64,000 bases of DNA from Escherichia coli (GTDB lineage: Bacteria; Pseudomonadota; Gammaproteobacteria; Enterobacterales; Enterobacteriaceae), in the NCBI RefSeq assembly GCF_044324875.1, contig NZ_CP172187.1, one strand, 5' to 3'. Shown in pieces: positions 4,574-63,933 of this stretch. A program made the position numbers and the translations under genes. Numbering within the stretch: position 1 is the stretch's first letter; the number at the start of each line of letters is the position of its first letter. The notes under the pieces were generated by a model. The model saw only the letters and a program-made list of their open reading frames with translations. It did not search any database and was not told the DNA's origin.

Positions 4574-4585
4574 GGGGGAGACGAA

Positions 4586-5990: not shown

Positions 5991-6024
5991 GTCGCGGAAT
6001 ATGTGAACAACGGAGGAAAACATC

Positions 6025-6450: not shown

Positions 6451-6496
6451 TTAACGGACGGGGCGGCAATGCCGCCCCTGTAAAGGAGACGAGAAC

Positions 6497-7295: not shown

Positions 7296-7895
7296 ATCTG
7301 CTGCTCTGATTCTGACTACTGCAGTGTTGTTCTGTCTGCCGGGCGCACCTTCGGCTCCCGGCTGCCTGGCGGCATCCGGTCGTCAGGCCCGACTCCGACA
7401 GGCAGCTGCTGGCGCACCTGCCAGTCTCCGCCGAACCCGCTGGCGCGGCTTCGGGCTGCCGCTACGGTCCGATGCGTGAAAACCCCGGGCTTGCAGCGAC
7501 CGTTCTGGTCGCGCCGCCTCTGTCGCGCCGTGGCCTGCGCTCCAGGCATCCCGGCAAAAAGACGCCGGGATGTAAGGCGCAACGCCGTTTCGCAAACCGC
7601 GCTTCACGTCGTTGCTGCGGGTCCCTGCTCATTGCCTGCCGGGTGCCACACACCCGTATGAGTCCCTGTCGCCGGGGGCATAGACAGCCACAACCTGCCG
7701 CACTGACTGTCCAGGGTAAATGAACAGCCCACAAAATTTTTTACCCAAAACCCGGTAAAAAATTTTGCGTTCTGCCCAGGACAGGTGCGTCAGGCCGTGG
7801 CAGTGATGCCCCTTGCGGCGAAGGTTCTCAAACGGGTGAAGTTCATACCACAGGGAATACAGCAGCAGGTTCCCGCGAAACGTCAAAACCGCGGC
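7296..7895. repeat. Leading-region repeat family B, copy 1 (~600 bp, GC-rich); candidate Frpo/ssi-like single-strand promoter
   Basis: Shares ...CTGATTCTGACTACTGCAGTGTTGTTCTGTCTGCCGGGCGCACCTTCGGCTCCCGGCTGCC... through ...CGCGGCTCCCGAAACTCAAC with copies at 10651-11280 and 18720-19340. Confidence 0.8.
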
Positions 7896-8148
7896 TCCCG
7901 AAACTCAACGGGTGATGTTCTTTAAAAATCAGGATTTATTTCAGGCTCCGGCAATACGCATTTATGTGTTCTGTCAGTCATCCGGCTGGCAGGTAATGAG
8001 AACGCAGGAACAGAAGGAGGAAAACACCGGAGAACGTCAGACGCAGATATGAAAAAAGCAGGCCGGGGAGGACCTGCTTAATCCACACCGCAAAAACTGT
8101 TCGAGCAGTTTCTGCGGTTCCATTCAACAGTCATAAGGAGTTTCATTT

Positions 8149-8379
8149 ATGACGGTAAGTATTGTTTCACCTTCCGCAGCGGCTGTAAAGCCCCGCCGTC
8201 ATCCCCGTTTCAGACGCGAAGACATCCCCGCGCCGGAAATTGACCCCGTGCTGAAAGCCTTCGGGCGACACATAGCCCGGAGTTTTCACCGGGGGCGTGG
8301 TGTACACATCCCCGCCATGAAAAACACGGCCTTCGGGCAGGTGCTCCGCACACTCGAACTGAAACGCGCTTTTAACTGA
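8149..8379 (+). CDS. Hypothetical small basic protein (76 aa)
   Basis: ORF downstream of repeat B copy 1 with RBS AGGAG. Confidence 0.4.
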   Translation: MTVSIVSPSAAAVKPRRHPRFRREDIPAPEIDPVLKAFGRHIARSFHRGRGVHIPAMKNTAFGQVLRTLELKRAFN

Positions 8380-13862: not shown

Positions 13863-13888
13863 GTTTATCCCCAATAAGCTAGCAATGG

Positions 13889-13926
13889 AGAGCCGTATGC
13901 ACTGAAAGGTGCACGTACGGTTCGGA
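13889..13926 (+). ncRNA. Group II intron domain V (catalytic hairpin)
   Basis: Matches the conserved domain V consensus as I recall it (GAGCCGUAUGC...GCACGUACGGUUC), about 80 nt from the 3' splice site. Confidence 0.7.
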
Positions 13927-14008
13927 GGGGGGGTAACGGTGATCTAACTCAAGATAAGCAGGACATATTCGCCATTTATCTTGAAAGACCACACGTACCC
14001 TACCCTAC

Positions 14009-14849: not shown

Positions 14850-16807
14850 ATGTCAGTTACAGAGTCTAAGACAAAAACGGAGCGTAAATCCAGCCGTAAA
14901 CCTGCAAAAACGCAGGAAACTGCACTGTCTGCCCTGCTGGCGCAGACGGAGGAAGTGAGCGTGCCGCTGGATTCACTGATTAAATCACCGCTGAATGTGC
15001 GCACGGTGCCGTATTCTGCGGAGTCCGTCAGTGAACTGGCTGATTCCATTAAGGGAGTCGGCCTGCTGCAGAATCTGGTTGTTCATGCCCTGCCAGGTGA
15101 CCGTTACGGTGTCGCCGCAGGTGGTCGCCGACTGGCAGCACTCAACATGCTGGCAGAGCGTGACATCATTCAGGCTGACTGGCCTGTCCGCGTGAAAATT
15201 ATTCCGCAGGAGCTGGCGACGGCTGCATCGATGACCGAGAACGGTCATCGTCGGGATATGCACCCTGCCGAACAGATTGCCGGATTCCGCGCAATGGCGC
15301 AGGAAGGCAAAACACCTGCGCAAATCGGTGATTTGCTGGGCTATTCACCCCGCCATGTCCAGCGAATGCTGAAACTGGCTGACCTTGCGCCTGTCATCCT
15401 CGATGCGCTGGCAGAAGACCGCATCACCACCGAACACTGTCAGGCGCTGGCGCTGGAGAACGACACCGCGCGTCAGGTGCAGGTGTTTGAAGCCGCTGCC
15501 AGTCAGGATGGGGTGGAAAACCGGATGTGCGGGTTATCCGCAACCTGATTACGGAAAGTGAAGTGGCGGTGAAGGACAACACTAAATTTCGCTTTGTGGG
15601 GGCTGATGCTTTCTCGCCTGACGAACTGCGCACCGATTTGTTCAGCGATGACGGGGACGGTTATGTCGACCGCGTGGCGCTCGATGCCGCCCTGCTGGAA
15701 AAACTCCAGGTTGTTGCAGAGTCCCTTCGGGAAGCAGAAGGCTGGGAATGGTGCGCCGGGCGCATGGAGCCAGTCGGTGAGTGCCGTGAGGATGCCGGAA
15801 CATACCGCTGTCTGCCGGAGCCGGAAGCGGTGCTGACGGAGGCGGAAGAAGAACGCCTGAACGAACTGATGACGCGTTACGACGCGCTGGAAAACCAGTG
15901 TGAGGAATCCGACCTGCTGGAAGCAGAAATGAAGCTGATGCGCTGCATGGCGAAGGTCAGAGCGTGGACGCCGGAGATACGTGCCGGAAGCGGTGTGGTG
16001 GTGTCCTGGCGTTATGGCAACGTATGTGTCCAGCGTGGTGTGCAGTTGCGCAGTGAAGATGACGCGACTGACGACGCTGACCGCACGGAACAGGTGCAGG
16101 AGAAAGCGTCAGTGGAGGAAATCAGTCTGCCACTGCTGACGAAAATGTCTTCCGAACGCACGCTGGCAGTCCAGGCGGCACTGATGCAGCAACCGGACAA
16201 ATCCCTGACACTGCTGGCATGGACGCTCTGCCTGAATGTGTTTGGCAGCGGAGCGTACAGTAAACCAGCACAAATCAGCCTGGAATGTAAACATTATTCG
16301 CTGACCAGCGATGCGCCGTCAGGGAAGGAAGGTGCCGCATTCATGGCGCTGATGGCAGAAAAAGCCCGTCTTGCGGCCCTGTTACCGGAGGGATGGTCAC
16401 GGGACATGACGACATTCCTTTCACTCAGTCAGGAGGTGCTGTTATCCCTGCTCAGTTTCTGCACCGCGTGCAGCATCCACGGCGTTCAGACCCGCGAGTG
16501 TGGTCACACGTCACGCAGCCCGCTGGACACGCTGGAGAGCGCCATCGGTTTTCACATGCGCGACTGGTGGCAGCCGACAAAAGCAAACTTCTTCGGACAC
16601 CTGAAAAAGCCGCAGATTATCGCAGCCCTGAATGAGGCAGGACTGTCCGGTGCCGCACGGGACGCGGAGAAGATGAAGAAAGGCGATGCGGCTGAACATG
16701 CAGAGTTCCATATGAAAGACAACCGCTGGGTGCCTGGCTGGATGTGTGCACCACGTCCACAGACGGATACCACTGAACGCACTGATAACCTGGCTGATGC
16801 CGCCTGA
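14850..16807 (+). CDS. ParB-like nuclease-domain protein, apparently split by a frameshift into 14850..15548 and 15527..16807
   Basis: N-terminal part has ParB/Srx-like motifs (LQNLVVHALPGDRYGVAAGGRRLAALN, HTH-like region); the second ORF continues in another frame with a 22-nt overlap. Combined length (~650 aa) is that of intact homologues as I recall them. Confidence 0.6.
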
Positions 16808-18012: not shown

Positions 18013-18199
18013 TGCGGCAACAATCACACGGATTTCCCGTGAACGGTCTGAATGAGCGGATTATTTTCAGGGAAAGTGAGTGTGGTCAGCGTGCAGGTAT
18101 ATGGGCTATGATGTGCCCGGCGCTTGAGGCTTTCTGCCTCATGACGTGAAGGTGGTTTGTTGCCGTGTTGTGTGGCAGAAAGAAGATAGCCCCGTAGTA

Positions 18200-18270
18200 A
18201 GTTAATTTTCATTAACCACCACGAGGCATCCCTATGTCTAGTCCACATCAGGATAGCCTCTTACCGCGCT
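18200..18270 (-). ncRNA. sok: Sok-type antisense RNA of the hok/mok/sok locus; approximate position
   Basis: Placed by analogy with type I hok/sok systems, where the antisense overlaps the mok start region; exact ends not determinable by eye. Confidence 0.35.
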
Positions 18271-18446
18271 TTGCGCAAGGAGAAGAAGGCCATGAAACTA
18301 CCACGAAGTTCCCTTGTCTGGTGTGTGTTGATCGTGTGTCTCACACTGTTGATATTCACTTATCTGACACGAAAATCGCTGTGCGAGATTCGTTACAGAG
18401 ACGGACACAGGGAGGTGGCGGCTTTCATGGCTTACGAATCCGGTAA
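18234..18446 (+). CDS. mok: Mok/FlmC-like overlapping reading frame that couples hok translation
   Basis: 70-aa ORF overlapping hok in a different frame. Confidence 0.55.
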
Positions 18447-22211: not shown

Positions 22212-22334
22212 AAAAGAATTAAAAGTTGATTTGCTTCAAATAACAGGATTTTGATCTGGTTCAATTTGATGACAATTAACCGCATAAAGGTTATATTAAT
22301 TACGTGGTTAATGCCACGTTAAAAATTGAAACTG

Positions 22335-22415
22335 AAAATCGCCGATGCAGGGAGTTCAGACCTCCCTGCATCGACTGTCCATAGAATCCTTAACGGAGGT
22401 TCCTATGTGTGCGCT
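22335..22415 (-). ncRNA. finP: FinP antisense RNA (approximate)
   Basis: Two stem-loops in the traJ leader: hairpin 22341-22378 and a second hairpin at about 22381-22410 whose loop holds the traJ Shine-Dalgarno (AACGGAGG) and whose stem holds the start codon. Confidence 0.5.
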
Positions 22416-39035: not shown

Positions 39036-39284
39036 ATGATGAAGGTCATATTCACGTCGAACCGTTTTATTGATTTTCTTATCCGGCTTTTGATTACAGC
39101 GATTGTCATTTCCCCGGTAATTATCTGGTCGTGGGATACGGTAAAAGAAACCACGGCAGACGGGATGCCTGCCGCTGCTTTCGTTATCCTTTACTCCGGT
39201 GTGCTCCTGTTTATTCTGTATTTTTGTTTTTCTGCCCTGACCTGCAGAAAACCGATGAAAGAAAAAATGATGAAAGGAATGAAG
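39036..39284 (+). CDS. trbE: TrbE-like small membrane protein; reading frame continues into traF without a stop
   Basis: Upstream portion of ORF-track frame 39036..40028; no in-frame stop separates it from the traF start at 39285. Confidence 0.45.
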
Positions 39285-40028
39285 ATGAATAAAGCATTAC
39301 TGCCACTGTTACTCTGCTGCTTTATTTTTCCGGCGTCAGGGAAAGATGCAGGCTGGCAGTGGTATAACGAGAAAATAAATCCGAAGGAAAAAGAAAATAA
39401 ACCTGTACCTGCAGCCCCCCGTCAGGAGCCGGATATTATGCAGAAACTGGCCGCGCTGCAGACGGCAACAAAGCGGGCGCTGTACGAAGCCATTCTGTAT
39501 CCCGGCGTGGATAATTTTGTGAAATATTTCCGGCTGCAGAATTACTGGACTCAGCAGGCCGGGCTTTTCACCATGAGTGCTAAAAAAGCTATGCTGGCAC
39601 ATCCCGAACTGGACTATAACCTGCAGTACAGCCATTACAACGGCACGGTCCGGAACCAGCTGGCGGCAGACCAGGCGCAGCAGCGACAGGCCATTGCGAA
39701 ACTGGCTGAACACTACGGCATCATGTTCTTTTACCGGGGGCAGGACCCCATCGACGGGCAGCTGGCGCAGGTCATTAATGGCTTCAGGGATACCTATGGT
39801 CTGAGTGTTATTCCCGTTTCCGTGGATGGTGTGATTAATCCGCTGTTGCCGGATTCCCGGACTGACCAGGGGCAGGCGCAGCGCCTCGGCGTGAAATATT
39901 TCCCGGCCATGATGCTGGTTGACCCGAAACAGGGCAGTGTTCGCCCGTTATCATACGGCTTTATTTCGCAGGACGACCTGGCAAAACAATTCCTGAACGT
40001 TTCTGAAGATTTTAAACCCAATTTTTAA
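39285..40028 (+). CDS. traF: TraF, thioredoxin-fold pilus assembly protein
   Basis: Internal ATG giving MNKALLPLLLCCFIFPASG..., 247 aa. Confidence 0.85.
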   Translation: MNKALLPLLLCCFIFPASGKDAGWQWYNEKINPKEKENKPVPAAPRQEPDIMQKLAALQTATKRALYEAILYPGVDNFVKYFRLQNYWTQQAGLFTMSAKKAMLAHPELDYNLQYSHYNGTVRNQLAADQAQQRQAIAKLAEHYGIMFFYRGQDPIDGQLAQVINGFRDTYGLSVIPVSVDGVINPLLPDSRTDQGQAQRLGVKYFPAMMLVDPKQGSVRPLSYGFISQDDLAKQFLNVSEDFKPNF

Positions 40029-43614: not shown

Positions 43615-46433
43615 ATGAAGTTTATGTGATTGCCGGTGGTGAGTGGTTGCGGAATAACCTGAATGCCATTGCCGCCTTTATGGGAACCAGAACGTGGGAT
43701 TCCATTGAAAAAATTGCGCTCACATTGTCTGTTCTCGCGGTGGCCGTAATGTGGGTACAGCGGCACAACGTGATGGATTTGCTGGGCTGGGTGGCCGTGT
43801 TTGTGCTTATCAGCCTGCTGGTTAATGTCCGTACATCGGTGCAGATTATTGATAACAGTGACCTGGTCAAAGTTCACCGGGTGGATAATGTGCCGGTCGG
43901 ACTGGCGATGCCACTTTCACTGACGACCCGTATCGGGCATGCAATGGTGGCCAGTTACGAGATGATCTTCACGCAACCGGACAGTGTCACCTACAGCAAA
44001 ACGGGGATGCTGTTTGGCGCAGAACTGGTATCAAAAAGCACCGACTTTTTGTCCCGTAATCCGGAAATCGCCAATCTTTTCCAGGATTATGTGCAGAACT
44101 GCGTGATGGGGGATATTTACCTGAACCACAAATATACGCTGGAGGAGCTGATGGCCTCCGCTGATCCCTACACGCTGATTTTTTCCCGCCCCAGCCCGCT
44201 GCGGGGCGTTTATGACAGCAATAATAATTTCGTAACCTGTAAGGACGCTTCGGTTTCGCTGAAAGACAAGCTGAATCTGGACACACAGAGTGGCGGAAAA
44301 ACCTGGCATTATTATGCCCAGCAGCTATTTGGCGGACGCCCTGATCCTAACCTGCTGTTCAGTACGCTGATTGGCGACAGTTACAGTTACTTCTATGGCT
44401 CAAGTAAATCAGCCAGCCAGATCATCCGCCAGAATGTCACCATCAATGCGCTGAAGGAGGGGATCACCAGTTATGCCGCACGTAATGGTGATTCGGCCAG
44501 CCTGGTGAATCTGGCCACCACGTCATCGATGGAGAAACAACGTCTGGCACATGTATCAATCGGTCATGTGGCGATGCGGACACTGCCCATGACGCAGACC
44601 ATCCTGACGGGGATCGCCATCGGTATTTTCCCGCTCCTGGTACTGGCGGCTGTATTCAACAAACTGACGCTGTCCGTCCTGAAAGGCTATGTGTTTGCCC
44701 TGATGTGGTTGCAGTCATGGCCAATGTTGTACGCCATTCTGAACAGCGCCATGACATTTTATGCAAAGCAGAATGGTGCACCGGTGGTGCTCTCGGAAAT
44801 TTCACAGATACAGCTGAAATACTCCGATCTGGCTTCCACTGCCGGGTATCTTTCCATGATGATCCCGCCATTATCCTGGATGATGGTCAGGGGGCTCGGG
44901 GCAGGATTTTCCAGTGTGTACAGCCATTTCGCTTCCTCTGCTATCAGCCCGACCGCCAGTGCAGCAGGCAGTGTGGTTGACGGTAATTACTCCTACGGCA
45001 ACATGCAGACGGAGAACGTGAACGGCTTCAGCTGGAGCACCAACAGCACCACGTCGTTTGGTCAGATGATGTACCAGACCGGCAGTGGCGCAACTGCCAC
45101 ACAGACCCGTGACGGTAATATGGTGATGGATGCAAGCGGAGCGATGTCCCGGTTACCGGTCGGCATCAATGCAACGCGTCAGATTGCGGCGGCACAACAG
45201 GAAATGGCCCGGGAAGCATCGAACAGAGCAGAAAGTGCCCTGCATGGGTTCAGCAGCAGTATTGCCAGTGCCTGGAACACGCTCAGTCAGTTTGGTTCTA
45301 ACCGGGGGAGCAGTGATTCTGTCACCGGTGGCGCTGACAGTACGATGAGCGCACAGGACTCCATGATGGCCAGCCGTATGCGCAGTGCAGTGGAAAGCTA
45401 TGCGAAGGCGCATAATATCAGTAATGAGCAGGCGACTCAGGAACTGGCATCCAGAAGTACGAGAGCTTCTGCCGGGATGTATGGAGATGCTCATGCTGAA
45501 TGGGGGGTTAAACCTAAAATTCTTGGTGTTGGTGGAGGATTAGGTGTTAAAGGTGGTGGTCGCGCTGGTATTGATTGGGAAGATAATGATGCGCATACGG
45601 CAAGTAGTAATACTCAGTCGAGCCATAATGCTCGTCATGATATCGATGCCAGAGCTACACAAGACTTTAAAGAGGCCAGCGATTACTTTACCAGTCGCAA
45701 GGTCAGTGAGTCCGGCAGCCATACTGACAATAATGCTGATTCCCGTGTGGATCAGTTGTCTGCAGCCCTGAACTCAGCAAAACAGAGTTACGACCAGTTC
45801 ACGACGAATATGACCCGCAGCCATGAATATGCTGAAATGGCATCCCGTACTGAAAGCATGAGTGGGCAGATGAGTGAAGACCTGTCGCAACAGTTTGCAC
45901 AGTATGTGATGAAACACGCGCCGCAGGATGCCGAAGCTATTCTGACAAACACCAGTTCACCGGAGATTGCAGAACGCCGTCGGGCTATGGCGTGGTCTTT
46001 TGTTCAGGAACAGGTGCAGCCTGGTGTTGATAATGCCTGGCGTGAATCCCGTGGGGACATCGGTAAAGGAATGGAGAGCGTACCTTCGGGTGGTGGCAGC
46101 CAGGATATTATTGCTGATCATCAGGGGCATCAGGCCATTATTGAGCAAAGAACGCAGGACAGTAATATCCGTAATGATGTAAAACATCAGGTTGATAATA
46201 TGGTCACAGAATACCGAGGCAATATCGGAGATACTCAGAGCAGCATACGTGGCGAAGAAAATATTGTAGGAAGACAGTATTCTGAACTACAAAATCACCA
46301 TAAAACAGAGGCATTATCTCAGAATAATAAATATAATGAAGAAAAATCGGGTCAGGAAAGAATGCCCGGGGCTGACAGTCCACAGGAACTGATGAAAAGA
46401 GCAAAGGAGTATCAGGATAAGCACAAGCAATAA
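43611..46433 (+). CDS. traG: TraG, mating-pair stabilisation and entry-exclusion determinant
   Basis: 940-aa polytopic membrane protein. Confidence 0.9.
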   Translation: MNEVYVIAGGEWLRNNLNAIAAFMGTRTWDSIEKIALTLSVLAVAVMWVQRHNVMDLLGWVAVFVLISLLVNVRTSVQIIDNSDLVKVHRVDNVPVGLAMPLSLTTRIGHAMVASYEMIFTQPDSVTYSKTGMLFGAELVSKSTDFLSRNPEIANLFQDYVQNCVMGDIYLNHKYTLEELMASADPYTLIFSRPSPLRGVYDSNNNFVTCKDASVSLKDKLNLDTQSGGKTWHYYAQQLFGGRPDPNLLFSTLIGDSYSYFYGSSKSASQIIRQNVTINALKEGITSYAARNGDSASLVNLATTSSMEKQRLAHVSIGHVAMRTLPMTQTILTGIAIGIFPLLVLAAVFNKLTLSVLKGYVFALMWLQSWPMLYAILNSAMTFYAKQNGAPVVLSEISQIQLKYSDLASTAGYLSMMIPPLSWMMVRGLGAGFSSVYSHFASSAISPTASAAGSVVDGNYSYGNMQTENVNGFSWSTNSTTSFGQMMYQTGSGATATQTRDGNMVMDASGAMSRLPVGINATRQIAAAQQEMAREASNRAESALHGFSSSIASAWNTLSQFGSNRGSSDSVTGGADSTMSAQDSMMASRMRSAVESYAKAHNISNEQATQELASRSTRASAGMYGDAHAEWGVKPKILGVGGGLGVKGGGRAGIDWEDNDAHTASSNTQSSHNARHDIDARATQDFKEASDYFTSRKVSESGSHTDNNADSRVDQLSAALNSAKQSYDQFTTNMTRSHEYAEMASRTESMSGQMSEDLSQQFAQYVMKHAPQDAEAILTNTSSPEIAERRRAMAWSFVQEQVQPGVDNAWRESRGDIGKGMESVPSGGGSQDIIADHQGHQAIIEQRTQDSNIRNDVKHQVDNMVTEYRGNIGDTQSSIRGEENIVGRQYSELQNHHKTEALSQNNKYNEEKSGQERMPGADSPQELMKRAKEYQDKHKQ

Positions 46434-46978: not shown

Positions 46979-47713
46979 TTGATGAAAATGAAAAAATTGA
47001 TGATGGTTGCACTGGTCAGTTCCACTCTGGCCCTTTCAGGGTGTGGTGCGATGAGCACAGCAATCAAGAAGCGTAACCTTGAGGTGAAGACTCAGATGAG
47101 TGAGACCATCTGGCTTGAACCCGCCAGCGAACGCACGGTATTTCTGCAGATCAAAAACACGTCTGATAAAGACATGAGTGGGCTGCAGGGTAAAATTGCT
47201 GATGCTGTGAAAGCAAAAGGATATCAGGTGGTGACTTCTCCGGATAAAGCCTACTACTGGATTCAGGCGAATGTGCTGAAGGCCGATAAGATGGATCTGC
47301 GGGAGTCTCAGGGATGGCTGAACCGTGGTTATGAAGGCGCAGCTGTTGGTGCAGCGTTAGGTGCCGGTATTACCGGCTATAACTCAAATTCTGCCGGTGC
47401 CACACTCGGTGTAGGCCTTGCTGCTGGTCTGGTGGGTATGGCTGCAGATGCGATGGTGGAAGATGTGAACTATACCATGATCACGGATGTGCAGATTGCA
47501 GAGCGTACTAAGGCAACGGTGACAACGGATAATGTTGCCGCCCTGCGTCAGGGCACATCAGGTGCGAAAATTCAGACCAGTACTGAAACAGGTAACCAGC
47601 ATAAATACCAGACCCGTGTGGTCTCAAATGCGAACAAGGTTAACCTGAAATTTGAAGAGGCGAAGCCTGTTCTCGAAGACCAGCTGGCCAAATCAATCGC
47701 AAATATTCTCTGA
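46979..47713 (+). CDS. traT: TraT, surface exclusion lipoprotein
   Basis: 244 aa with lipobox LALSGCGA; matches F TraT from memory. Confidence 0.95.
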
Positions 47714-47915
47714 ACCTCGTCAGGAGGCTGATCTGACCGGCCTCCTTGCTGACGCCTCGCGTTGCTCGTTGTCCAACCCCGGGATGTAACAAAATAAATT
47801 TTGTCACCTCCCGGCGTTTCCGAAATAAATATGAAAACACTGAGCGGTTGTGCAAATTCTTTGTGCGACCGTGAAGTGTTGCCGGCGAAGCCGGGATCTT
47901 CCGGAGAAAGTCATT

Positions 47916-48704
47916 ATGACATCAGACAATATCGCTGAATATGTTGGTGAGAATAATCAATTTACTGAGAAGCCTGTAACTGAATACCCCCCGGTGATAC
48001 AGGATAATACAGTGACCACTAAAGACTATCTGTACAGCAATAATATTGATACTGACCTTTTAGTGGTTATCGGAGGGCTTATTGTTATATTGTTTCTCAT
48101 GATGCTTATCATGTACTTTATTAATTCTCTCAGGCATAAGGAATTAACTGAAATACTGACAAAAATATCTTTTCCTGAAAAATCCGGGAGCAATTCGCTT
48201 AAACCGGAAGCGGTCAGCTGTAATTTGTTGTCCCTGTGTGTGCTGGCACCGGTATTCTGTACACCCAAAAAGCTGGCTGAAGTTTCCAGGGAGATCATCG
48301 TGGCGAGTGCGCAGGAGATTGCATGGACGCCGGGGAGCAGTCGTATTGATGGTCATCAGGGCGAAAATATTACCTGGTCTCTGTCGTCACAGTCTCATGC
48401 CGATAAATACGAGCTCATCAATAAAACGTCCCGTGTTTCTCCTGACAGTGGCCGTTTTTATGAACCGGACACAGTTCTGGATCACCGTGAACGGGTACGC
48501 CTTTTTATTCAGATCCAGTTTCCGCATGGGAGTGACTGGTCTGAAGTATTGCGCCTGACTGACATTGTTGCAGAGAAGGTCTCTTCCGGCAGGACTGCAG
48601 GTGCGTATTCCGCTCTATTCGATCACGGATTGGCATCGAAGTCCGATCAGCGATTCGCATCCATTCGATCAACCGGGAACTTAACTTTTTCTACCGCTTT
48701 TTAA
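47916..48704 (+). CDS. Hypothetical single-pass membrane protein (262 aa) inserted between traT and traD; 3' end runs into the IS terminal repeats
   Basis: ORF-track frame 47850..48704; ATG at 47916; TM helix LLVVIGGLIVILFLMMLIMYFI; the last ~30 codons overlap the IS21-type terminal repeats beginning at about 48602. Confidence 0.5.
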   Translation: MTSDNIAEYVGENNQFTEKPVTEYPPVIQDNTVTTKDYLYSNNIDTDLLVVIGGLIVILFLMMLIMYFINSLRHKELTEILTKISFPEKSGSNSLKPEAVSCNLLSLCVLAPVFCTPKKLAEVSREIIVASAQEIAWTPGSSRIDGHQGENITWSLSSQSHADKYELINKTSRVSPDSGRFYEPDTVLDHRERVRLFIQIQFPHGSDWSEVLRLTDIVAEKVSSGRTAGAYSALFDHGLASKSDQRFASIRSTGNLTFSTAF

Positions 48705-49456
48705 CGCGTTTTTTCGCTGCTTTCCACTACCGGGGGATTTTTCCTCAGTGACTCTCCCTGAAGGACCACTCGGTGTGAGTTATGTACCAGTCTGTCCAGG
48801 ATGGCATCTGCTGTTGTTGGGTTCTCCATCAGACCATGCCATTTATCTACCGGGAACTGGCTTACCACTATCGTGCTGCTTTGTCCGTAACGATCCTCTA
48901 TGAGCTCCAGAAGGTCATTACACTGGGCGTTACTTAACTGTTCCAGCCCCAGATCGTCCAGGATTAGAACCTGTATTTTTTGCAACTGTTTCAGATATTT
49001 CAGCCAGCTGCCATCAACACGTCCCTGAGCCAGTTGTTCCAGTAATCGCCCGGTTCTACAGTACCGGACGCTGTGTTTCTGTCGACATGCCTGTTCGCCC
49101 AGCGCATTGGCTATCCAGCTCTTGCCACATCCTGTCGGACCGGTTATCAGCAGGTTTTTCCTGTGGGTTATGTAGTGGCCGTTCAGCAGTTCTCTCATCT
49201 GTTCAGCCCGCAGACCTCTTGAGGCCGGATAGCGCAGCCCTTCCGGTGTTGCCTGGTATTTCAGGCCGGCATTTTTTCTCAACCGTGCCACACGGCTGTT
49301 TTCCCTGCTCAGAAGCTCGTCATCAACCAGCAGCGTCAGCCTTTCCTCGAACGACAGTTCGTCGTAGGTCTGAGGCGTTTCCCGCTGCCGTATCAGGCTC
49401 CCGGCCATCGCCGGGAGTTTCAGTTGGGTCAGTTTGTTTAACAGGTTATCACTCAT
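48701..49456 (-). CDS. istB: IstB-like AAA+ ATPase transposition helper
   Basis: ORF-track frame 48701..49699; internal start MSDNLL...; Walker A GPTGCGKSW and Walker B LILDDLG. Confidence 0.8.
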   Translation of the reverse strand: MSDNLLNKLTQLKLPAMAGSLIRQRETPQTYDELSFEERLTLLVDDELLSRENSRVARLRKNAGLKYQATPEGLRYPASRGLRAEQMRELLNGHYITHRKNLLITGPTGCGKSWIANALGEQACRQKHSVRYCRTGRLLEQLAQGRVDGSWLKYLKQLQKIQVLILDDLGLEQLSNAQCNDLLELIEDRYGQSSTIVVSQFPVDKWHGLMENPTTADAILDRLVHNSHRVVLQGESLRKNPPVVESSEKTR

Positions 49457-49472
49457 ACTGTTGTTCCTTCTG

Positions 49473-51119
49473 TCAGTGGTAGTAGCCCGGACCACGCAGG
49501 TTTTCATGCTCTGAAGCATATGCCGGATGTTGTTCGCCCTGGCGGGATAATGGAAGCTCCAGGTTCTCCCGATGGTGACGCAGCAGATTGTCGATAAAGC
49601 GTCTGTCAGGGGCGTTATAGTGCAGGGCAACGTAACAGGCCTTTTCCAGCCGTTCCGGGCCGTATTTTTTCTGAAGTGCCAGCAGCCCCAGAACTGCACG
49701 ATAAGCCAGTTCCGGATGGGGTTTTGCCTTCAGCATGGATTCAACCACCCGGCCTGTGGACGGGCCCGTACGTTTTCCCTGCTCGATCAGGCGTTCCGGT
49801 GTCCATGTCCCGTGCTGCCGGTGGCGCTCTGGCATGTGAAGCGGATTGGTTGTGTGTTTATATTCATGTGTGCTGCGCGGATGTTGCGCCACACACTGCC
49901 CCTTGTGCCAGAGCTGTACCACCGACTGCCCCGCCTTCAGTGACAGACGCTGACCGACCAGTTCGTGTGGAACGGAGTACCAGTGACGGGCATATTCAAC
50001 GTGGTAGTCAGGGCCAACCTTCACAGCTTTGTATTCCGTGTATTCATAAGGTGCCAGAGGCAGCGGAGAGAGTGCTGGCGCATCCAGTATGCGGAAGCGT
50101 TCTGCACGGGTTTGATTGCCGTACCCCTTCATTGGCCGGTTATTCATGTCTGTCAGTAACTCCCTAAGGCGCGCATTCAGCGCCCTGAGCGTGTGGAAGG
50201 TTTCATTACGGATGCGGGCAAGAAGCCATCGTTCAACGATGAGGACGCCGTTTTCTGCTTTTGGTTTATCTTTAGGTTTGCGTGGTCGGGCCGGGATGAT
50301 AACCGTGCCATAGTGCTCAGCCAGTGCCTGATAACTGTCGTTGATGACAGGCTCATATCGATCGGCCTTTTTCACTGCGCTTCTGAGGTTATCGGGGATG
50401 AGCAGCTTCGGTACGCCGCCCAGGAAGGTCAGGCAACGGCTGTGGGCATTTAACCATGACATCATGTCCTGACCTTCGCACGCTTCAACGTAGGTATAGT
50501 TGGACGCCCCCATTACGGCCACGAAGATTGCCACGCGGCGTATCTCACCGGTGTCCGGATTAATAACAGGAACCGTAGGACCACAGAAGTCGATAAAAAG
50601 CTTTTCGCCGGCACGATGCTCCTGGCGCATGGAGAGACGTCGCGTTTTTTTCCACTCCCGGTAGCAACGGCAGAAGTGCGAGTATCCCATCGCTTTGTTA
50701 CCCGCCTGTGCCTTGTATTCCATCCACAACAGTTGCCGCGTCACACCTGGTTTTCTCATTTCCGTATCGAAGTACAACATGTCAGGCATTACAAGCTCTG
50801 ATGCAAAGGTGTCTTTGGGCGGAAAAATGAGTTTCTCCAGCGTGTCATGGGATATATCAGCAGGTAATGGCCATGACAGAGAAGAGGCTTTGAAGCGGGC
50901 AAGAACCTCAAAAACGGTTGAGGCGCTGATGTGTAACGTCAGTCCGATACAACGGTTAGTCAGCTTCTTGTCGAACTTGAGCTGAAGGATCTTAAAACAG
51001 GTTTCCATAGTGCTCCTGGATTTTCTCTTTCTGGACATTGACGTCTCCACTGGTTTAAACACGGCAATGGAGACTGTGGTGAAAAGAGTTAATTCCCGGA
51101 GTGACTGGCAGGATGCCAA
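49473..51119 (-). CDS. istA: IstA-like transposase (start uncertain)
   Basis: 548-aa ORF whose 3' end overlaps istB; HTH-like N-terminus; two-gene arrangement diagnostic of the IS21 family. Confidence 0.75.
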   Translation of the reverse strand: MASCQSLRELTLFTTVSIAVFKPVETSMSRKRKSRSTMETCFKILQLKFDKKLTNRCIGLTLHISASTVFEVLARFKASSLSWPLPADISHDTLEKLIFPPKDTFASELVMPDMLYFDTEMRKPGVTRQLLWMEYKAQAGNKAMGYSHFCRCYREWKKTRRLSMRQEHRAGEKLFIDFCGPTVPVINPDTGEIRRVAIFVAVMGASNYTYVEACEGQDMMSWLNAHSRCLTFLGGVPKLLIPDNLRSAVKKADRYEPVINDSYQALAEHYGTVIIPARPRKPKDKPKAENGVLIVERWLLARIRNETFHTLRALNARLRELLTDMNNRPMKGYGNQTRAERFRILDAPALSPLPLAPYEYTEYKAVKVGPDYHVEYARHWYSVPHELVGQRLSLKAGQSVVQLWHKGQCVAQHPRSTHEYKHTTNPLHMPERHRQHGTWTPERLIEQGKRTGPSTGRVVESMLKAKPHPELAYRAVLGLLALQKKYGPERLEKACYVALHYNAPDRRFIDNLLRHHRENLELPLSRQGEQHPAYASEHENLRGPGYYH

Positions 51120-51347
51120 TCAATGATCGGAAGCATGCCAAATCGTGATCGATTGTGATGCCAAACTGTGATCGGAGATGGATGCCAAATCATGATCGAT
51201 TCGAATGCCAAACTGCGATCGATTCAGATGCCATTTTGCAGCAGGCGGGTATCACCACCGGCATACAGGGTACACCTGGTCTGTTTCTGTGAATTAACCC
51301 CACATCATCCTTTTCTGCCCTGTTCCAGATTTTCCCGGAGTTTCATC

Positions 51348-53546
51348 ATGAGTTTTAACGCAAAGGATATGACCCAGGGCGGTCAGATTGCGTCCATGCG
51401 TATCCGCATGTTCAGCCAGATCGCCAATATCATGCTTTACTGCCTGTTTATTTTTTTCTGGATACTCGTTGGTCTGGTTTTATGGGTAAAAATAAGCTGG
51501 CAGACGTTTGTGAACGGCTGTATTTACTGGTGGTGTACCACGCTGGAAGGCATGCGGGATTTAATCAAGTCCCAGCCAGTATATGAGATTCAGTATTACG
51601 GCAAAACCTTCCGGATGAACGCTGCCCAGGTACTGCATGATAAATATATGATCTGGTGCGGTGAGCAGCTATGGTCCGCATTCGTTCTGGCGTCTGTCGT
51701 GGCCCTGGTTATTTGCCTGATCACCTTCTTTGTTGTCTCCTGGATTCTGGGGCGTCAGGGTAAACAACAGAGCGAAAATGAAGTCACAGGTGGTCGTCAG
51801 CTGACAGACAATCCGAAAGACGTTGCCCGGATGCTGAAAAAAGACGGCAAGGACTCCGATATCCGGATTGGCGACCTGCCGATTATCCGGGATTCCGAAA
51901 TCCAGAACTTCTGTCTGCACGGCACGGTCGGGGCCGGTAAGTCGGAGGTTATCCGTCGTCTGGCCAACTACGCCCGTCAGCGCGGTGATATGGTGGTGAT
52001 TTATGACCGTTCAGGGGAATTTGTTAAAAGTTACTATGATCCCTCCATCGATAAAATCCTGAATCCGCTGGATGCCCGCTGTGCCGCATGGGATTTGTGG
52101 AAGGAGTGCCTGACACAGCCGGATTTTGATAATACCGCAAATACTCTGATCCCTATGGGTACAAAAGAGGACCCGTTCTGGCAGGGTTCAGGACGTACCA
52201 TTTTTGCGGAAGCGGCGTACCTGATGCGTAATGACCCCAACCGCAGCTACAGCAAACTGGTGGACACACTGCTTTCCATCAAAATTGAAAAACTGCGTAC
52301 CTTCCTGCGTAATTCACCGGCAGCCAACCTGGTGGAAGAGAAAATTGAGAAAACGGCGATTTCCATCCGTGCTGTGCTGACCAACTACGTGAAAGCCATC
52401 CGTTACCTGCAGGGGATTGAGCATAACGGTGAGTCTTTTACCATCCGTGACTGGATGCGTGGTGTCCGGGAAGATCAGAAAAACGGCTGGCTGTTTATCT
52501 CGTCGAATGCCGACACCCATGCCTCCCTGAAGCCGGTGATCTCCATGTGGCTGTCCATTGCCATTCGTGGTCTGCTGGCAATGGGAGAAAACCGTAACCG
52601 TCGTGTGTGGTTTTTCTGTGACGAGTTACCCACGTTACACAAACTGCCGGACCTGGTGGAGATCCTGCCGGAAGCCCGTAAGTTCGGAGGCTGTTATGTG
52701 TTTGGTATCCAGTCCTATGCCCAGCTGGAAGATATCTACGGTGAGAAAGCGGCGGCCACGCTGTTTGACGTCATGAACACCCGTGCTTTTTTCCGTTCCC
52801 CGAGCCATAAGATTGCAGAGTTCGCTGCCGGTGAGATTGGTGAGAAAGAGCACCTGAAAGCCAGCGAGCAGTATTCCTACGGTGCTGACCCGGTACGTGA
52901 CGGGGTATCGACCGGTAAGGATATGGAGCGTCAGACACTGGTCAGTTATTCCGACATTCAGTCTCTGCCGGATCTGACCTGCTATGTCACTCTGCCCGGA
53001 CCGTATCCGGCAGTAAAACTCTCCCTGAAATATCAGGCACGACCGAAGGTCGCTCCGGAGTTTATTCCGCGTGACATCAACCCGGAAATGGAGAACCGTC
53101 TGAGTGCCGTACTTGCTGCAAGGGAAGCAGAAGGTCGCCAGATGGCCAGCCTCTTCGAACCGGAGGTTGCCTCCGGAGAAGGCGTGACTCAGGCTGAACA
53201 GCCACAACAGCCACAACAGCCACAACAGCCACAACAGCCACAACAGCCACAACAGCCACAACAGCCAGTGTCTTCTGTCATGAATGATAAGAAGTCAGAT
53301 GCAGGTGTGAGTGTTCCGGCAGGGGGGATCGAGCAGGAGCTGAAAATGAAACCGGAAGAAGAGATGGAACAGCAACTGCCACCCGGGATCAGTGAATCCG
53401 GTGAAGTGGTGGATATGGCCGCTTATGAGGCATGGCAACAGGAAAATCATCCGGACATCCAGCAGCAGATGCAGCGTCGTGAAGAGGTGAACATTAATGT
53501 GCACCGGGAGCGCGGGGAGGATGTTGAGCCGGGAGATGATTTCTGA
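51348..53546 (+). CDS. traD: TraD, type IV coupling protein
   Basis: ORF-track frame 51168..53546; true start [22 protein letters not shown] at 51348; Walker A GTVGAGKS; matches F TraD from memory. Confidence 0.95.
53199..53261 (+). repeat. 9-bp tandem repeat (CAGCCACAA)x7 encoding the TraD C-terminal (QQP)n tract
   Basis: Counted directly in the sequence. Confidence 0.9.
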
Positions 53547-56500
53547 TGTTGAGTTTTAGCGTTGTTAAATCGGCAGGCAGTGCCGGAAACTATTACACCG
53601 ACAAGGATAATTACTATGTGCTGGGTAGCATGGGAGAACGCTGGGCCGGTCAGGGGGCTGAACAGCTTGGGCTGCAGGGCAGCGTCGATAAGGATGTTTT
53701 TACCCGTCTTCTGGAGGGCAGGCTGCCGGACGGGGCGGATTTAAGCCGCATGCAGGATGGCAGTAATAAGCATCGTCCCGGCTACGACCTGACCTTCTCC
53801 GCCCCCAAAAGTGTCTCCATGATGGCCATGCTCGGGGGGGATAAACGTCTTATTGATGCACATAACCAGGCTGTGGATTTTGCTGTCCGTCAGGTGGAGG
53901 CGCTGGCTTCCACACGGGTGATGACGGACGGACAGTCAGAAACGGTGCTGACCGGTAATCTGGTGATGGCACTGTTTAACCATGACACCAGTCGCGATCA
54001 GGACCCACAGTTACACACGCATGTGGTGGTGGCTAATGTCACGCAGCATAACGGCGAGTGGAAGACACTGAGCAGTGACAAAGTGGGGAAAACCGGATTT
54101 TCCGAGAACGTGCTCGCGAACCGGATTGCGTTCGGGAAAATATATCAGAGTGAGTTACGTCAGCGCGTTGAGGCGCTGGGTTATGAAACCGAAGTGGTCG
54201 GTAAGCACGGTATGTGGGAGATGCCGGGCGTACCGGTGGAGGCCTTTTCCGGACGCTCACAGGCTATCCGGGAGGCCGTCGGGGAAGATGCCTCGCTGAA
54301 ATCCCGGGATGTGGCGGCACTGGATACGCGAAAATCCAAACAGCACGTCGATCCGGAAATCAGAATGGCTGAATGGATGCAGACGCTGAAGGAAACCGGG
54401 TTCGACATCCGGGCATATCGTGACGCGGCGGATCAGCGTGCGGAGACCCGCACGCAGGCGCCCGGGGCTGTTTCACAGGAGGGGCCGGATGTGCAGCAGG
54501 CGGTGACACAGGCCATTGCCGGATTAAGTGAACGAAAAGTGCAGTTCACGTATACGGACGTGCTGGCCAGGACGGTCGGCATACTGCCGCCGGAAAATGG
54601 TGTGATTGAACGGGCACGCGCCGGTATCGATGAGGCCATCAGCCGTGAGCAGCTTGTCCCCCTCGATCGTGAGAAGGGGCTGTTCACGTCCGGGATTCAT
54701 GTGCTCGATGAGCTGTCAGTCCGGGCACTCAGTCGTGACATCATGAAACAGAACCGGGTGACCGTACATCCGGAGAAAAGTGTCCCCCGGACGGCCGGTT
54801 ACAGCGATGCCGTCAGTGTTCTGGCACAGGATCGCCCGTCGCTGGCCATTGTGTCCGGGCAGGGCGGTGCAGCCGGGCAGCGTGAGCGGGTGGCTGAACT
54901 GGTCATGATGGCCCGGGAGCAGGGGCGGGAGGTGCAGATTATCGCTGCTGACCGTCGCTCGCAGATGAACCTGAAGCAGGATGAACGGCTGTCCGGTGAG
55001 CTGATAACCGGACGTCGTCAGCTGCAGGAGGGCATGGTCTTCACGCCGGGCAGTACCGTTATCGTTGACCAGGGCGAAAAACTCTCCCTGAAAGAGACGT
55101 TAACCCTGCTGGACGGTGCCGCACGTCATAACGTACAGGTCCTGATAACCGACAGCGGGCAGCGAACCGGTACAGGCAGTGCGCTGATGGCCATGAAGGA
55201 TGCCGGGGTGAACACGTATCGCTGGCAGGGCGGAGAACAGCGACCGGCCACCATCATCAGTGAACCGGACCGGAATGTCCGCTATGACCGGCTGGCCGGA
55301 GATTTTGCGGCCAGCGTGAAAGCCGGAGAAGAGAGCGTGGCACAGGTCAGCGGGGTACGGGAACAGGCCATACTGACACAGGCCATTCGCAGTGAGCTGA
55401 AAACACAGGGCGTGCTCGGACACCCGGAGGTGACCATGACCGCCCTGTCACCGGTCTGGCTGGACAGCCGGAGCCGTTATCTGCGGGATATGTACCGACC
55501 GGGGATGGTGATGGAGCAGTGGAACCCGGAGACACGCAGTCATGACCGCTATGTTATCGACCGGGTGACGGCGCAGAGTCACAGCCTGACCCTGCGGGAT
55601 GCGCAGGGCGAAACGCAGGTGGTGCGTATTTCCTCCCTGGACAGCAGCTGGTCGCTGTTCCGGCCGGAAAAAATGCCGGTGGCAGACGGCGAGCGACTGA
55701 GGGTGACAGGGAAAATTCCCGGACTCCGCGTCTCCGGCGGTGACCGCCTGCAGGTGGCATCCGTCAGTGAAGATGCGATGACGGTTGTTGTGCCGGGGCG
55801 GGCTGAACCGGCCACCCTGCCTGTGGCTGATTCACCGTTCACGGCACTGAAGCTGGAGAACGGCTGGGTGGAAACGCCCGGGCATTCCGTCAGCGACAGT
55901 GCGAAGGTTTTTGCCTCCGTCACACAGATGGCAATGGACAACGCCACCCTGAACGGTCTGGCCCGCAGTGGTCGTGATGTCCGGCTGTATTCTTCACTGG
56001 ATGAAACCCGTACTGCGGAAAAACTTGCCCGCCATCCCTCCTTTACGGTGGTTTCTGAGCAGATAAAGGCGCGTGCCGGTGAGACATTGCTGGAAACCGC
56101 TATCAGTCTGCAGAAAGCCGGGCTTCACACGCCGGCACAGCAGGCTATTCATCTGGCCCTTCCTGTGCTGGAAAGTAAAAACCTGGCCTTCAGCATGGTG
56201 GACCTGCTGACAGAGGCGAAGTCGTTTGCTGCAGAAGGAACCAGTTTTACTGAACTGGGAGGGGAAATCAATGCGCAGATAAAACGCGGTGATTTACTGT
56301 ATGTGGATGTGGCAAAAGGCTATGGCACAGGCCTGCTGGTTTCCCGTGCGTCGTATGAGGCAGAAAAGAGCATTCTTCGCCATATTCTCGAAGGTAAGGA
56401 GGCGGTCACGCCGCTGATGGAGAGAGTACCTGGCGAACTCATGGAGAAACTGACATCAGGACAGCGTGCCGCCACCCGCATGATACTGGAAACGTCCGAC

Positions 56501-60327: not shown

Positions 60328-60540
60328 ATGAATGGATTCAGAAACAGTTCACGGAACGGTCAGGTCTGGCGCTGGCAGCGTGCCGGAAGCCGGGCCGTTA
60401 TTCTGGAGGTCAGTGGACGCTGGATGGAAGCGGCAGAAGCATGGCGACGGGCTGCCGGTGTTGCACCCCGGACAGACTGGCAGCAGTTTGCCCGAAAAAG
60501 GGCTGAACAATGCCACCGACGCTGCCGGGGAAGGGTGTAA
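60328..60540 (+). CDS. Hypothetical small Arg/Trp-rich protein
   Basis: Short ORF; could be spurious. Confidence 0.3.
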   Translation: MNGFRNSSRNGQVWRWQRAGSRAVILEVSGRWMEAAEAWRRAAGVAPRTDWQQFARKRAEQCHRRCRGRV

Positions 60541-60787
60541 CGAAAAAGCAGCCTTCATTACTCCAGGGATTCAGAAGGCTGAATAATGCATGAGATTTGC
60601 TTTTTTTAATATCCGGTCGGGCAGTATGACCGGACAGTTCTGAGTAGCACAGAGTTTTTTCCGTATTAAGTCGTGATTTTATATTTTGTGATTAATTTCG
60701 CAAAATAAGGTGTTATTCAGTGTGTGCTGCGATATTCAGGATTACCTGAAATACAGGTGCCATTTATCTGATATGGAGAATAATATG

Positions 60788-62733: not shown

Positions 62734-62947
62734 CGGATTAAAAATAGATGTAAATAAAAAGCATACTTATTGGCTGGAGTGACGCCTTCGTGCTTCGGTA
62801 GTAAAAAACGGGAAATGAAGGTAATAGTCAGCAACAGGGAATGTGGTATTATCGCGGCGGGTGTCTGAGCCTTTCTGGTTCAGGCAAGACGCAGGTACCA
62901 GAAATGCGAAGACCCCACTTGTTAATCCATTAACTCGTGAGGTCTGC

Positions 62948-63154
62948 ATGAAGTACTTGAACACTACTGATTGTAGCCTCTTCCTTGCAGAGAGGTCAAA
63001 GTTTATGACGAAATATGCCCTTATCGGGTTGCTCGCCGTGTGCGCCACGGTGTTGTGTTTTTCACTGATATTCAGGGAACGGTTATGTGAACTGAATATT
63101 CACAGGGGAAATACAGTGGTGCAGGTAACTCTGGCCTACGAAGCACGGAAGTAA
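62948..63154 (+). CDS. SrnB' leader reading frame (mok analogue)
   Basis: ATG at 62948 (MKYLNTTD...) in frame with srnB. Confidence 0.5.
   Translation: MKYLNTTDCSLFLAERSKFMTKYALIGLLAVCATVLCFSLIFRERLCELNIHRGNTVVQVTLAYEARK
63005..63154 (+). CDS. srnB: SrnB/PndA-type Hok-family toxin (49 aa)
   Basis: MTKYALIGLLAVCATVLCFSLIFRERLCELNIHRGNTVVQVTLAYEARK. Confidence 0.85.
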   Translation: MTKYALIGLLAVCATVLCFSLIFRERLCELNIHRGNTVVQVTLAYEARK

Positions 63155-63698: not shown

Positions 63699-63933
63699 CT
63701 AAGTTACTTTCTTGAACATTTGAATTGCGGATGCTAGATTACTGATCGTTTAAGGAATTTTGTGGCTGGCCACGCCGTAAGGTGGCAGGGAACTGGTTCT
63801 GATGTGGATTTACAGGAGCCAGAAAAGTGAAAACCCCGATAATCTTCAGCAAGTTTGGCGACTAAGAGAAGATTAACGGGGCCATCTAAAAACCGTATAG
63901 CCAACAATTCAGCTATGCGGGGAGTATAGTTAT

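Follow-up and report, generated by a model that had tools for sequence, protein, structure and literature searches.

In the window, as we call the whole 64-kb stretch of DNA that was analysed, the interval between traT and traD is an R100-type traT-yhfA-traD backbone that received one IS21-family insertion within yhfA, a reading that is very probable when taken jointly with the consequences discussed below. The insertion lies after yhfA codon 229 and is flanked by a 5-bp duplication, GCAGG. It is an ordinary landing of an IS in the tail of yhfA, and probably a recent one. The first-pass annotation had described a 3.6-kb insertion between the two tra genes; the feature is real, but it falls into two unrelated parts, a yhfA module of 791 bp and an IS of 2,639 bp. 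Its central proposal, that a single-TM ORF located between traT and traD has had its 3' end truncated and fused by an IS21-family element, is confirmed here. The features of the region are as follows.

46979-47713, plus strand: traT, the upstream neighbour (244-aa ORF; 99% nucleotide identity to R100 traT; annotated as traT in the collinear plasmid pGZM7d)
47714-47894, plus strand: spacer 3' of traT, common to plasmid F (F traT-traD spacer aligned by blastn to the reconstructed spacer)
47895-48601, plus strand: left portion of the yhfA module of R100-type plasmids, which F lacks (F homology is lost at 47895)
47916-48601, plus strand: yhfA codons 1-228 plus 2 nt, within the left part of the module
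47916-48704, plus strand: chimeric ORF of 262 aa, YhfA residues 1-229 followed by 33 IS-encoded residues
48597-48601, no strand: target-site duplication (TSD) GCAGG, left copy (perfect 5-bp direct repeat)
48602-51240, minus strand: IS21-family insertion sequence, 2,639 bp, TG..CA termini
48602-48664, no strand: istB-proximal IS terminus, 2-3 copies of a ~20-bp terminal repeat (..CGATCACGGATTGGCATC..; repeat search)
48701-49456, minus strand: istB, helper AAA+ ATPase, 251 aa (coordinates derived from the size of the RefSeq istB, 756 bp, in pE203449_106)
49473-51008, minus strand: istA, IS21-family DDE transposase, 511 aa (coordinates derived from the size of the RefSeq istA, 1,536 bp)
51112-51240, no strand: istA-proximal IS terminus, 5-6 copies of the repeat GATGCCAAAnnnTGATCG (repeat search)
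51241-51245, no strand: target-site duplication GCAGG, right copy
51246-51297, plus strand: orphaned yhfA 3' remnant, namely the last base of codon 229, codons 230-245 and the stop (reconstruction and translation; matches the pGZM7d gene)
51348-53546, plus strand: traD, coupling protein, the downstream neighbour, intact and with its native GGAG ribosome-binding site (RBS)

The IS21-family element and its insertion site

The element starts with TGCG and ends with TGCA (TGCGTATT... / ...TTTTGCA), and it carries the imperfect terminal inverted repeats and multiple internal repeats of the IS21 type, two to three at one end and five to six at the other. Its two genes, istA and then istB, are both on the minus strand with a gap of 16 bp between them, and their products exceed the curated NCBIfam cut-offs: IstA matched the DDE transposase family NF033546 (transpos_IS21) with 284.4 bits (cut-off 160; E 1e-84), and IstB matched NF038214 with 256.6 bits (cut-off 200). 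The extent first given for the element, about 48602-51242, was exact at its start and has to be shortened to 51240 at its end. Inspection of the two termini, which the same annotation had recommended, disclosed TG..CA ends and perfect flanking GCAGG copies at 48597-48601 and 51241-51245, a duplication whose 5 bp are inside the 4-8 bp expected of the IS21 family. These ends are backed by about 20 plasmid copies of 100.0% identity (among the matches listed), whose own limits fall within 1-3 bp of them, as well as by an independent copy in pE203449_106, in which homology breaks at the same bases.

Within the 64-kb window this is the sole copy of the IS. Its only label is that of NCBI, 'IS21-like element ISSso4 family', and we refer to it as an ISSso4/ISEc12-like element. 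It shares with the ISSso4/ISEc12-type elements of E. coli and Shigella the istA-istB pair, the TG..CA ends, the terminal-repeat arrays and the 5-bp TSD, and differs from them only in the insertion site. A 5-bp TSD has also been described for an ISEc12 insertion in tssM of E. coli ST131 (PMC10711316). The intact istA and istB, together with the copies of 100.0% identity elsewhere (among the matches listed), are an indirect sign, read from sequence, that the element may be active in transposition. We propose that the IstA transposase, with the help of the IstB ATPase, would have put the 2,639-bp element after yhfA codon 229 and duplicated GCAGG in doing so.

When the IS and one GCAGG were removed in silico, the resulting spacer was 99.9% identical to those of uninterrupted plasmids such as pGZM7d. 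The reconstructed spacer (1,003 bp) matched four plasmids from end to end at 99.8-99.9% identity, and was covered to at least 80% in 1,771 PLSDB records. The 120-bp junction probes behaved differently, neither of them being covered to at least 80% in any of the 72,556 PLSDB plasmids, and a 5-kb query spanning the region was covered by no E. coli complete genome. Since neither junction is present in PLSDB, and since IS copies elsewhere are identical at 100.0% (among the matches listed), the event would be private to this plasmid lineage and recent. Many E. coli genomes contain several copies of the same IS and such elements can mislead short-read assemblers, and a repeat-induced misjoin at the junctions was therefore considered. 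However, it is true transposition, and not a misjoin, that leaves a perfect 5-bp TSD and an empty site restored to the exact base once the element is taken out, and we give an assembly artefact next to no probability.

The plasmid pE203449_106 (NZ_JBRERN010000003.1) carries the same IS in the same orientation, also abutting traD, and was examined as a possible relative with the same insertion. It was ruled out: there the IS joins traD within the 5' end of that gene, a matching TSD is missing, and a truncated antirestriction gene is found on the other side. The insertion in that plasmid is an independent event, followed by deletion or rearrangement.

yhfA, a gene of the R100-type backbone

The 262-aa ORF reported at 47916-48704 is present, with its ATG preceded by GGAG. 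It had been taken for unusual cargo; instead, it is yhfA, a standard gene of the R100-type backbone, and "common conserved backbone variant", which the first-pass annotation had named as a refuting outcome, is an apt description of the ORF and not of the IS. A search for the intact ORF elsewhere, suggested at the outset, found it uninterrupted in R100 and in about 1,800 PLSDB plasmids. R100 (NC_002134.1) carries between traT and traD a gene of 245 aa (WP_000199905.1, 'conserved hypothetical protein YhfA'), a name also borne by the AFDB entries, and the ORF of the window is identical to R100 YhfA at 220 of 231 positions (95%) up to the IS junction (residues 1-229). The gene of pGZM7d, likewise of 245 aa (WP_123891608.1), matches the reconstruction. 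By tblastn, yhfA was detected in 1,934 PLSDB plasmids. It sits in the traT-traD interval and reads in the direction of the tra operon, and this synteny is kept at five further loci, including one with a subfamily of 35% identity.

It had also been assumed that traD closely follows traT in F-like backbones. This is correct for F, where the spacer measures 252 bp, but not for R100-type plasmids, in which yhfA is standard; the presence of YhfA in R100 and its absence from F have been noted before (PMC2762410). Homology to the F spacer extends over the 181 bp that follow traT and the 18 bp that precede traD: the block 3' of traT is 93% identical (traT 3' end included) and F homology resumes at 51330, ahead of traD (blastn in both cases). 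Between these blocks F has 52 bp at the site of the 791-bp yhfA module. An interrupted yhfA is known from the ETEC Ent plasmid pEntH10407, whose tra region is R100-like and in which the gene, just upstream of traD, is likewise truncated by IS elements (PMC2762410). There, however, the elements are ISEc8-like (IS66-type) and about half of the tra operon has been lost, whereas the larger tra ORFs of the window appear intact.

It could be argued that the IS hit non-coding DNA, a long spacer in which the ORF is open merely by chance, since a family annotation was absent everywhere searched (NCBIfam, Pfam) and many frameshifted variants of 213 aa exist in public assemblies. We regard this as extremely improbable. 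The dN/dS of yhfA is about 0.2 (0.19-0.28 in the C-domain), indicating purifying selection; copies of 83-91% identity retain a length of 243-246 aa, and even the 35%-identity subfamily shares the architecture; the RBS is good; 1,795 of the 1,934 plasmid copies (93%) are near full length; and the AF2 domain model is confident. On the basis of dN/dS, synteny and the domain model, yhfA is a real gene.

The prediction for YhfA, based partly on this model, is an inner-membrane protein that crosses the membrane once and has an acidic periplasmic tail of ~47 aa and a cytoplasmic alpha/beta domain of ~150 aa. The single TM segment proposed earlier was recovered as one strong hydrophobic segment at residues 48-66, and in four alleles the N-tail contains 1-2 K/R versus 6-9 D/E, with K/R after the TM segment. 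The full-length AF2 model was unusable (pLDDT 42.6), and only that of the C-domain (pLDDT 80, pTM 0.79) was considered. AGG and GYTW, which are invariant across YhfA subfamilies, are on predicted strands of this domain (model positions 131-136 and 139-147, corresponding to residues 228-233 and 236-244). A possible lipobox at LSLC (residues 105-108) was discarded, the L at -1 being unfit and the segment a beta-strand in the model. Similarity searches yielded no YhfA match in Pfam (with the single protein at E<=10, and with the alignment) or in NCBIfam, and no relative in a PDB sequence profile search. An HMM search of 1.84 billion representatives returned 55 matches, all of them YhfA family members or their fragments, and word-indexed remote-homology searches added to the family the P0140 subfamily alone. 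The literature searched contained no tested YhfA function.

The window gene is a disrupted member of this family. Native residues 1-229 are kept and the last 16 are swapped for 33 encoded by the IS; the earlier statement that the last ~30 codons lie in IS repeats is right in that the tail is IS-derived, and the count has to be corrected to 33. An intact homologue of equal length ending at this point, which would have argued against truncation, was not what the search returned: the intact gene (245 aa) continues for 16 codons beyond the junction. Being cut after residue 229, the window copy lies outside the definition of a full-length member (243-246 aa with a C-terminal AGG-x6-GYTW). According to the domain model, the lost segment contains the final two predicted beta-strands of the sheet together with the conserved GYTW motif, and YhfA would exchange these for unrelated residues. 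We believe that yhfA is probably inactivated and the chimera non-functional. The protein could keep partial function despite its substitute tail, and the loss of yhfA may be phenotypically silent because F-type plasmids transfer well without it.

The first-pass annotation had considered the ORF as exclusion- or defence-related cargo that entered the traT-traD gap within the 3.6-kb insertion. The gene does come directly after traS and traT. Moreover, its first ~300 nt are hypervariable, with no nucleotide similarity between alleles and a 3' part that is 71-95% identical, a behaviour resembling that of traS alleles, and the variable part is the predicted periplasmic tail. Nevertheless, R100 and about 1,800 plasmids carry the ORF without any IS, and the IS is an event separate from the acquisition of yhfA because it carries its own TSD. 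A defence function found no backing in PADLOC (0 families at E<=1), and Pfam and NCBIfam were blank. Neither was there similarity to TraS or TraT, since no homology to the TraT (PF05818) or TraS families was detected in Pfam at E<=10 and a profile search of 1.84 billion proteins yielded YhfA relatives only. In six loci, a small sample, linkage of the yhfA 5' allele to the traS allele was not supported; for example, loci L005 and L007 share a related traS and their yhfA 5' alleles differ. Finally, F shows full exclusion without yhfA. We conclude that an origin as such cargo is improbable and that an exclusion role of YhfA is unsupported, the sole hint being the traS-like hypervariable 5' cassette. 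Our own tentative suggestion, which we consider doubtful, is that YhfA might be a functional component of R100-type conjugation, either through allele-specific recognition by the tail/TM cassette (as a third exclusion or mating-specificity factor beside TraS and TraT) or through modulation of TraD by the C-domain.

Expression of traD and downstream transfer genes

With the insertion in place, tra transcripts would arrive at traD-traI-traX only after traversing 2.6 kb of IS sequence that is not translated and runs antisense to istAB. Because of this passage, polar (Rho-type) attenuation of traD-traI-traX and lower transfer would be expected, not promoter activation, and the IS may dampen the expression of the downstream transfer genes. 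Terminator-like motifs in the IS were not in excess (7 versus 4.0 +/- 2.1 expected in shuffles). Secondary traD and traI promoters are reported for F, and these would lessen polarity.

The opposite effect, an outward promoter in the IS acting on traD, had been put forward initially and would make the insertion adaptive by driving or raising traD-traI expression. Some IS families do create outward or hybrid promoters, and the native sequence ahead of traD is kept over 107 bp, together with the traD RBS. However, a consensus scan of the plus strand from 48184 to traD, crude enough for weak or non-canonical sites in the terminal IS sequence or the 107 bp before traD to escape it, detected no sigma-70-like promoter, and manual inspection of the TTGCAG at the junction (51236-51241) found no -10 at a spacing of 16-18 bp. 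In addition, transcription of istAB from its promoter is directed away from traD. Classic IS21 has an outward -35 at one end, the istB-distal one, which here faces yhfA and traT, not traD. We consider activation of traD by the IS very improbable and, since no outward promoter toward traD is predicted, a polar effect appears more likely from the sequence. The literature searched offered nothing usable on the traT-traD interval, the traD promoter or pHK01 transcription starts.

Significance for R100-type plasmids

In itself, the insertion is of little weight, being one more IS landing in a tra operon. It serves chiefly to mark the lineage, with two junctions that are unique against 72,556 PLSDB plasmids, and it would be a likely reason for the reduced transfer expected of this plasmid. 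Of more use is what emerged about the interrupted gene, which R100 and about 1,900 sequenced F-like plasmids have in their tra operon. Purifying selection acts on it, its domain model is confident and looks novel, and its 5' cassette is mosaic and hypervariable; as an object for knock-out and exclusion studies it is inexpensive and clearly delimited. If YhfA did have a role in conjugation, this plasmid would be a natural C-terminal knock-out, and ~1,900 sequenced plasmids, many of them likely with resistance or virulence genes, would hold an uncharacterised transfer determinant.

Delimitation of the IS21-family element and its empty site

A stretch of 3,634 bp separates traT, which ends with its stop codon at 47713, from traD, whose start codon is at 51348; it contains the following features:

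47916-48704, + strand, ORF of 262 codons, ATG start with GGAG upstream
48701-49456, minus strand, istB (helper ATPase), NF038214, 257 bits against an NCBIfam curated cut-off of 200
49473-51008, minus strand, istA (IS21-family transposase), NF033546, 284 bits against an NCBIfam curated cut-off of 160
51246-51297, orphaned 3' remnant of yhfA encoding its last 16 residues

The istA and istB coordinates were trimmed to the RefSeq gene-call sizes of an identical IS copy. A megablast of positions 47000-52000 against the 72,556 plasmids of PLSDB yielded many copies of the element, among the matches listed at 100.0% identity, with the first base at window position 48602-48603 and the last at 51240-51242. 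A perfect 5-bp direct repeat, GCAGG, was found at 48597-48601 and 51241-51245, and the homology between the window and pE203449_106, a plasmid with an independent copy of the element, stops on both sides at exactly the 48602/51240 boundary bases. Since these three lines of evidence agree, the element, present once in the window, spans 48602-51240 (2,639 bp). It starts with TGCG, ends with TGCA and carries arrays of ~20-bp repeats at both ends (2-3 copies on the istB side and 5-6 on the istA side), and at the sequence level displays all the features that characterize the IS21 family. IstB from identical copies is labelled 'IS21-like element ISSso4 family' by NCBI, and 5-bp duplications have been reported for ISEc12, an E. 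coli element that is related to this one or identical with it (PMC10711316). The IS ends and target-site duplication that the first-pass annotation had proposed to define are thus established.

We rebuilt the empty site by removing the IS plus one GCAGG copy. The resulting 1,003-bp traT-traD spacer matched four plasmids end to end (99.8-99.9% identity) and was covered over at least 80% of its length by 1,771 PLSDB records. In one uninterrupted plasmid, pGZM7d, which is 99.8% identical to the window over the entire traG-traI stretch, the spacer encodes a 245-aa 'hypothetical protein' (WP_123891608.1) with traT and traD on either side. No record among the 72,556 PLSDB plasmids covered at least 80% of either IS-junction probe (2 x 120 bp), and none of the complete E. 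coli genomes in RefSeq covered the 5-kb query. The precise empty site and the absence of these junctions indicate a genuine transposition event, found in this plasmid alone across the collections searched and presumably recent, because the IS copies elsewhere are identical.

yhfA, a backbone gene of R100-type plasmids

R100, the prototype IncFII plasmid, carries the same 245-aa gene, likewise between traT and traD; its product and that of the window ORF share 95% identity through residue 229, beyond which the window copy turns into IS sequence. Entries for this protein in AlphaFold-DB are named YhfA. Ochi et al. (2009) found YhfA in R100 but not in F, and truncated by ISEc8-like elements in pEntH10407 (PMC2762410). 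By tblastn, YhfA was detected in 1,934 PLSDB plasmids (Escherichia, Klebsiella, Shigella, Salmonella and others), near full length in 1,795 of them, so that the intact homologue sought was found and the ORF is not the unusual cargo initially suggested. F and the window are homologous from traT up to 47894 and again from 51330 onwards; therefore, a 791-bp yhfA module stands where F has 52 bp. Accordingly, the interval described as a 3.6-kb insertion is real, but it combines an old backbone polymorphism with a new IS, and the expectation that traD closely follows traT holds for F-type and not for R100-type plasmids.

Codons 98-245 showed dN/dS values of 0.19-0.28 (Nei-Gojobori, window allele against four diverged alleles), and the N-terminal part 0.34-0.56 where computable. 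The traT-yhfA-traD synteny was kept in all loci fetched, and a subfamily of only ~35% identity (P0140, 675 member sequences) also occurs directly after traT in p204A1-64K, where a DUF2726 gene, vapBC and traD follow. The low dN/dS of the 3' part, the synteny and the position of this subfamily argue that yhfA is a real gene. When 1.84 billion representative proteins were searched with a profile, only 55 matched, all of the same family. Many database copies (P0045, P0063, P0066, P0076, P0084, P0088 and others), most of them singletons, are 213-aa frameshift variants that shift into the +1-frame ORF of window 48238-48558 (ending ...MGVTGLKYCA); repeated pseudogenisation, or homopolymer errors in the assemblies, could explain them.

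The traT-traD-traI stretch is an accessory-gene hotspot in F-like plasmids: p204A1-64K carries its yhfA-like gene, DUF2726 gene and vapBC in the traT-traD gap (3737-7888 of that locus), and F carries vapBC in the traD-traI gap (5967-6592 of the F locus compared). Elsewhere in the window, the following were observed:

11961-14008, group II intron in the leading region, encoding a 633-aa reverse transcriptase/maturase (TIGR04416, 310.7 bits, cut-off 300), with an Rfam Intron_gpII hit after it at 13888-14008 (67 bits)
14850-15548, ParB/Srx-domain ORF of 232 aa, overlapping the next by 22 nt
15527-16807, adjoining 426-aa ORF with no family match
39036-40028, trbE and traF as a single uninterrupted 330-codon ORF (the frame runs without a stop codon from TrbE, model positions 1-75 of 84, into TraF, residue 83 onwards)
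18118-18294, 62859-63015, 22302-22411, 63825-63916, 8053-8154, 44330-44415, 56395-56471 and 60437-60620, Rfam gathering-threshold matches typical of an IncFII plasmid (two sok RNAs, FinP/traJ 5' UTR, CopA and the four pHK01-type antisense RNAs AS-pc01, AS-traG, AS-traI and AS-pc02)

The ParB/Srx and 426-aa ORFs look like the two parts of a single long ParB-like leading-region gene; the putative frameshift between them could mark a true pseudogene or stem from an error in sequencing. The trbE-traF junction was 100% identical in six listed matches, including pGZM7d, and at least 99% identical in 11 records, while most F-like plasmids were just 90-95% identical; the trbE stop codon may have been lost specifically in this lineage.

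Consequences of the insertion for yhfA and traD

The IS sits between the second and third bases of codon 229, and the chimeric ORF retains YhfA residues 1-229 followed by 33 IS-encoded residues instead of the native 16, in agreement with the truncation or fusion proposed from the sequence. The lost segment contains a GYTW motif, invariant in both subfamilies, and, in the C-domain model, most of strand 5 and all of strand 6; on these grounds, YhfA has likely lost its function.

The insertion left intact the ribosome-binding site and start codon of traD, together with 107 bp of its native upstream sequence. On the tra strand, the 2.6-kb IS is untranslated and antisense to istAB, and transcripts from the tra operon or the traT-proximal spacer would have to cross it before traD. 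Since IS insertions within operons are classically polar, Rho-dependent polarity on traD-traI-traX would be the expected outcome; terminator-like hairpins within the IS were not commoner than in shuffled sequence. The opposite suggestion, an outward IS promoter serving traD, is unsupported, because a crude consensus scan of the + strand from 48184 to traD gave no sigma-70-like site and no hybrid promoter using the TTGCAG at the IS tip could be constructed by hand. In F, secondary promoters are reported for traD and traI. Upstream of its start, the traD frame remains open as far as a GTG at 51168, inside the IS end (51168-51347), so ORF finders may report a 792-aa 'TraD' whose N-terminus is extended by IS-derived sequence; the true start is likely the native ATG (51348), which has a GGAG ribosome-binding site.

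Predicted architecture and mosaic 5' end of yhfA

Residues 48-66 are the one strongly hydrophobic stretch of YhfA. In four alleles, an acidic N-tail (~45 aa; 1-2 K/R against 6-9 D/E) precedes this transmembrane segment and K/R residues follow it, which by the positive-inside rule predicts an N-out, C-in topology. The AF2 model of the full-length protein failed (pLDDT 42.6), whereas that of the C-terminal 148 residues was confident (pLDDT 80, pTM 0.79), with the order beta-alpha-beta-beta-loop-beta-alpha-beta-beta; its AFDB50 matches were YhfA itself and uncharacterised enterobacterial and Pseudomonas proteins (E around 1e-6). The first ~300 nt of the gene (tail, transmembrane segment and linker) had no detectable nucleotide similarity between alleles, while the remaining ~430 nt were 71-95% identical. 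The four mutually dissimilar alleles of this hypervariable 5' cassette lie at:

47916-48215, window
3001-3240, comparison locus L006
3001-3300, comparison locus L007
3737-4000, p204A1-64K locus

Three of the four share only their first ~10 residues (M-x-SDNI-x-EYV).

The exclusion or defence role first proposed found no positive evidence, YhfA having no match in Pfam, NCBIfam, PADLOC or PDB sequences. F, which lacks yhfA, displays complete exclusion. What keeps the exclusion idea alive is the mosaic 5' cassette, a behaviour shared with the neighbouring traS; compared across six loci, 5' alleles of yhfA did not simply track those of traS. Overall, we regard an exclusion role as improbable. Besides Ochi et al. 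(2009), the open-access literature searched held two mentions of YhfA, as a backbone gene (PMC7174561) and in co-variation with traC in ST131 plasmids (bioRxiv 10.64898/2025.12.08.692488), and no tested function.

Thus, the first-pass observation is confirmed and its interpretation was partly right. The case is an ordinary one, a known IS within a backbone gene that is itself known yet uncharacterised. Within the open-access literature searched there are precedents for IS insertion in or adjoining yhfA (pEntH10407, pE203449_106), and only the insertion site is new. The remaining interest lies in yhfA itself, a conserved, unstudied member of the R100-type tra operon whose 5' end is mosaic.
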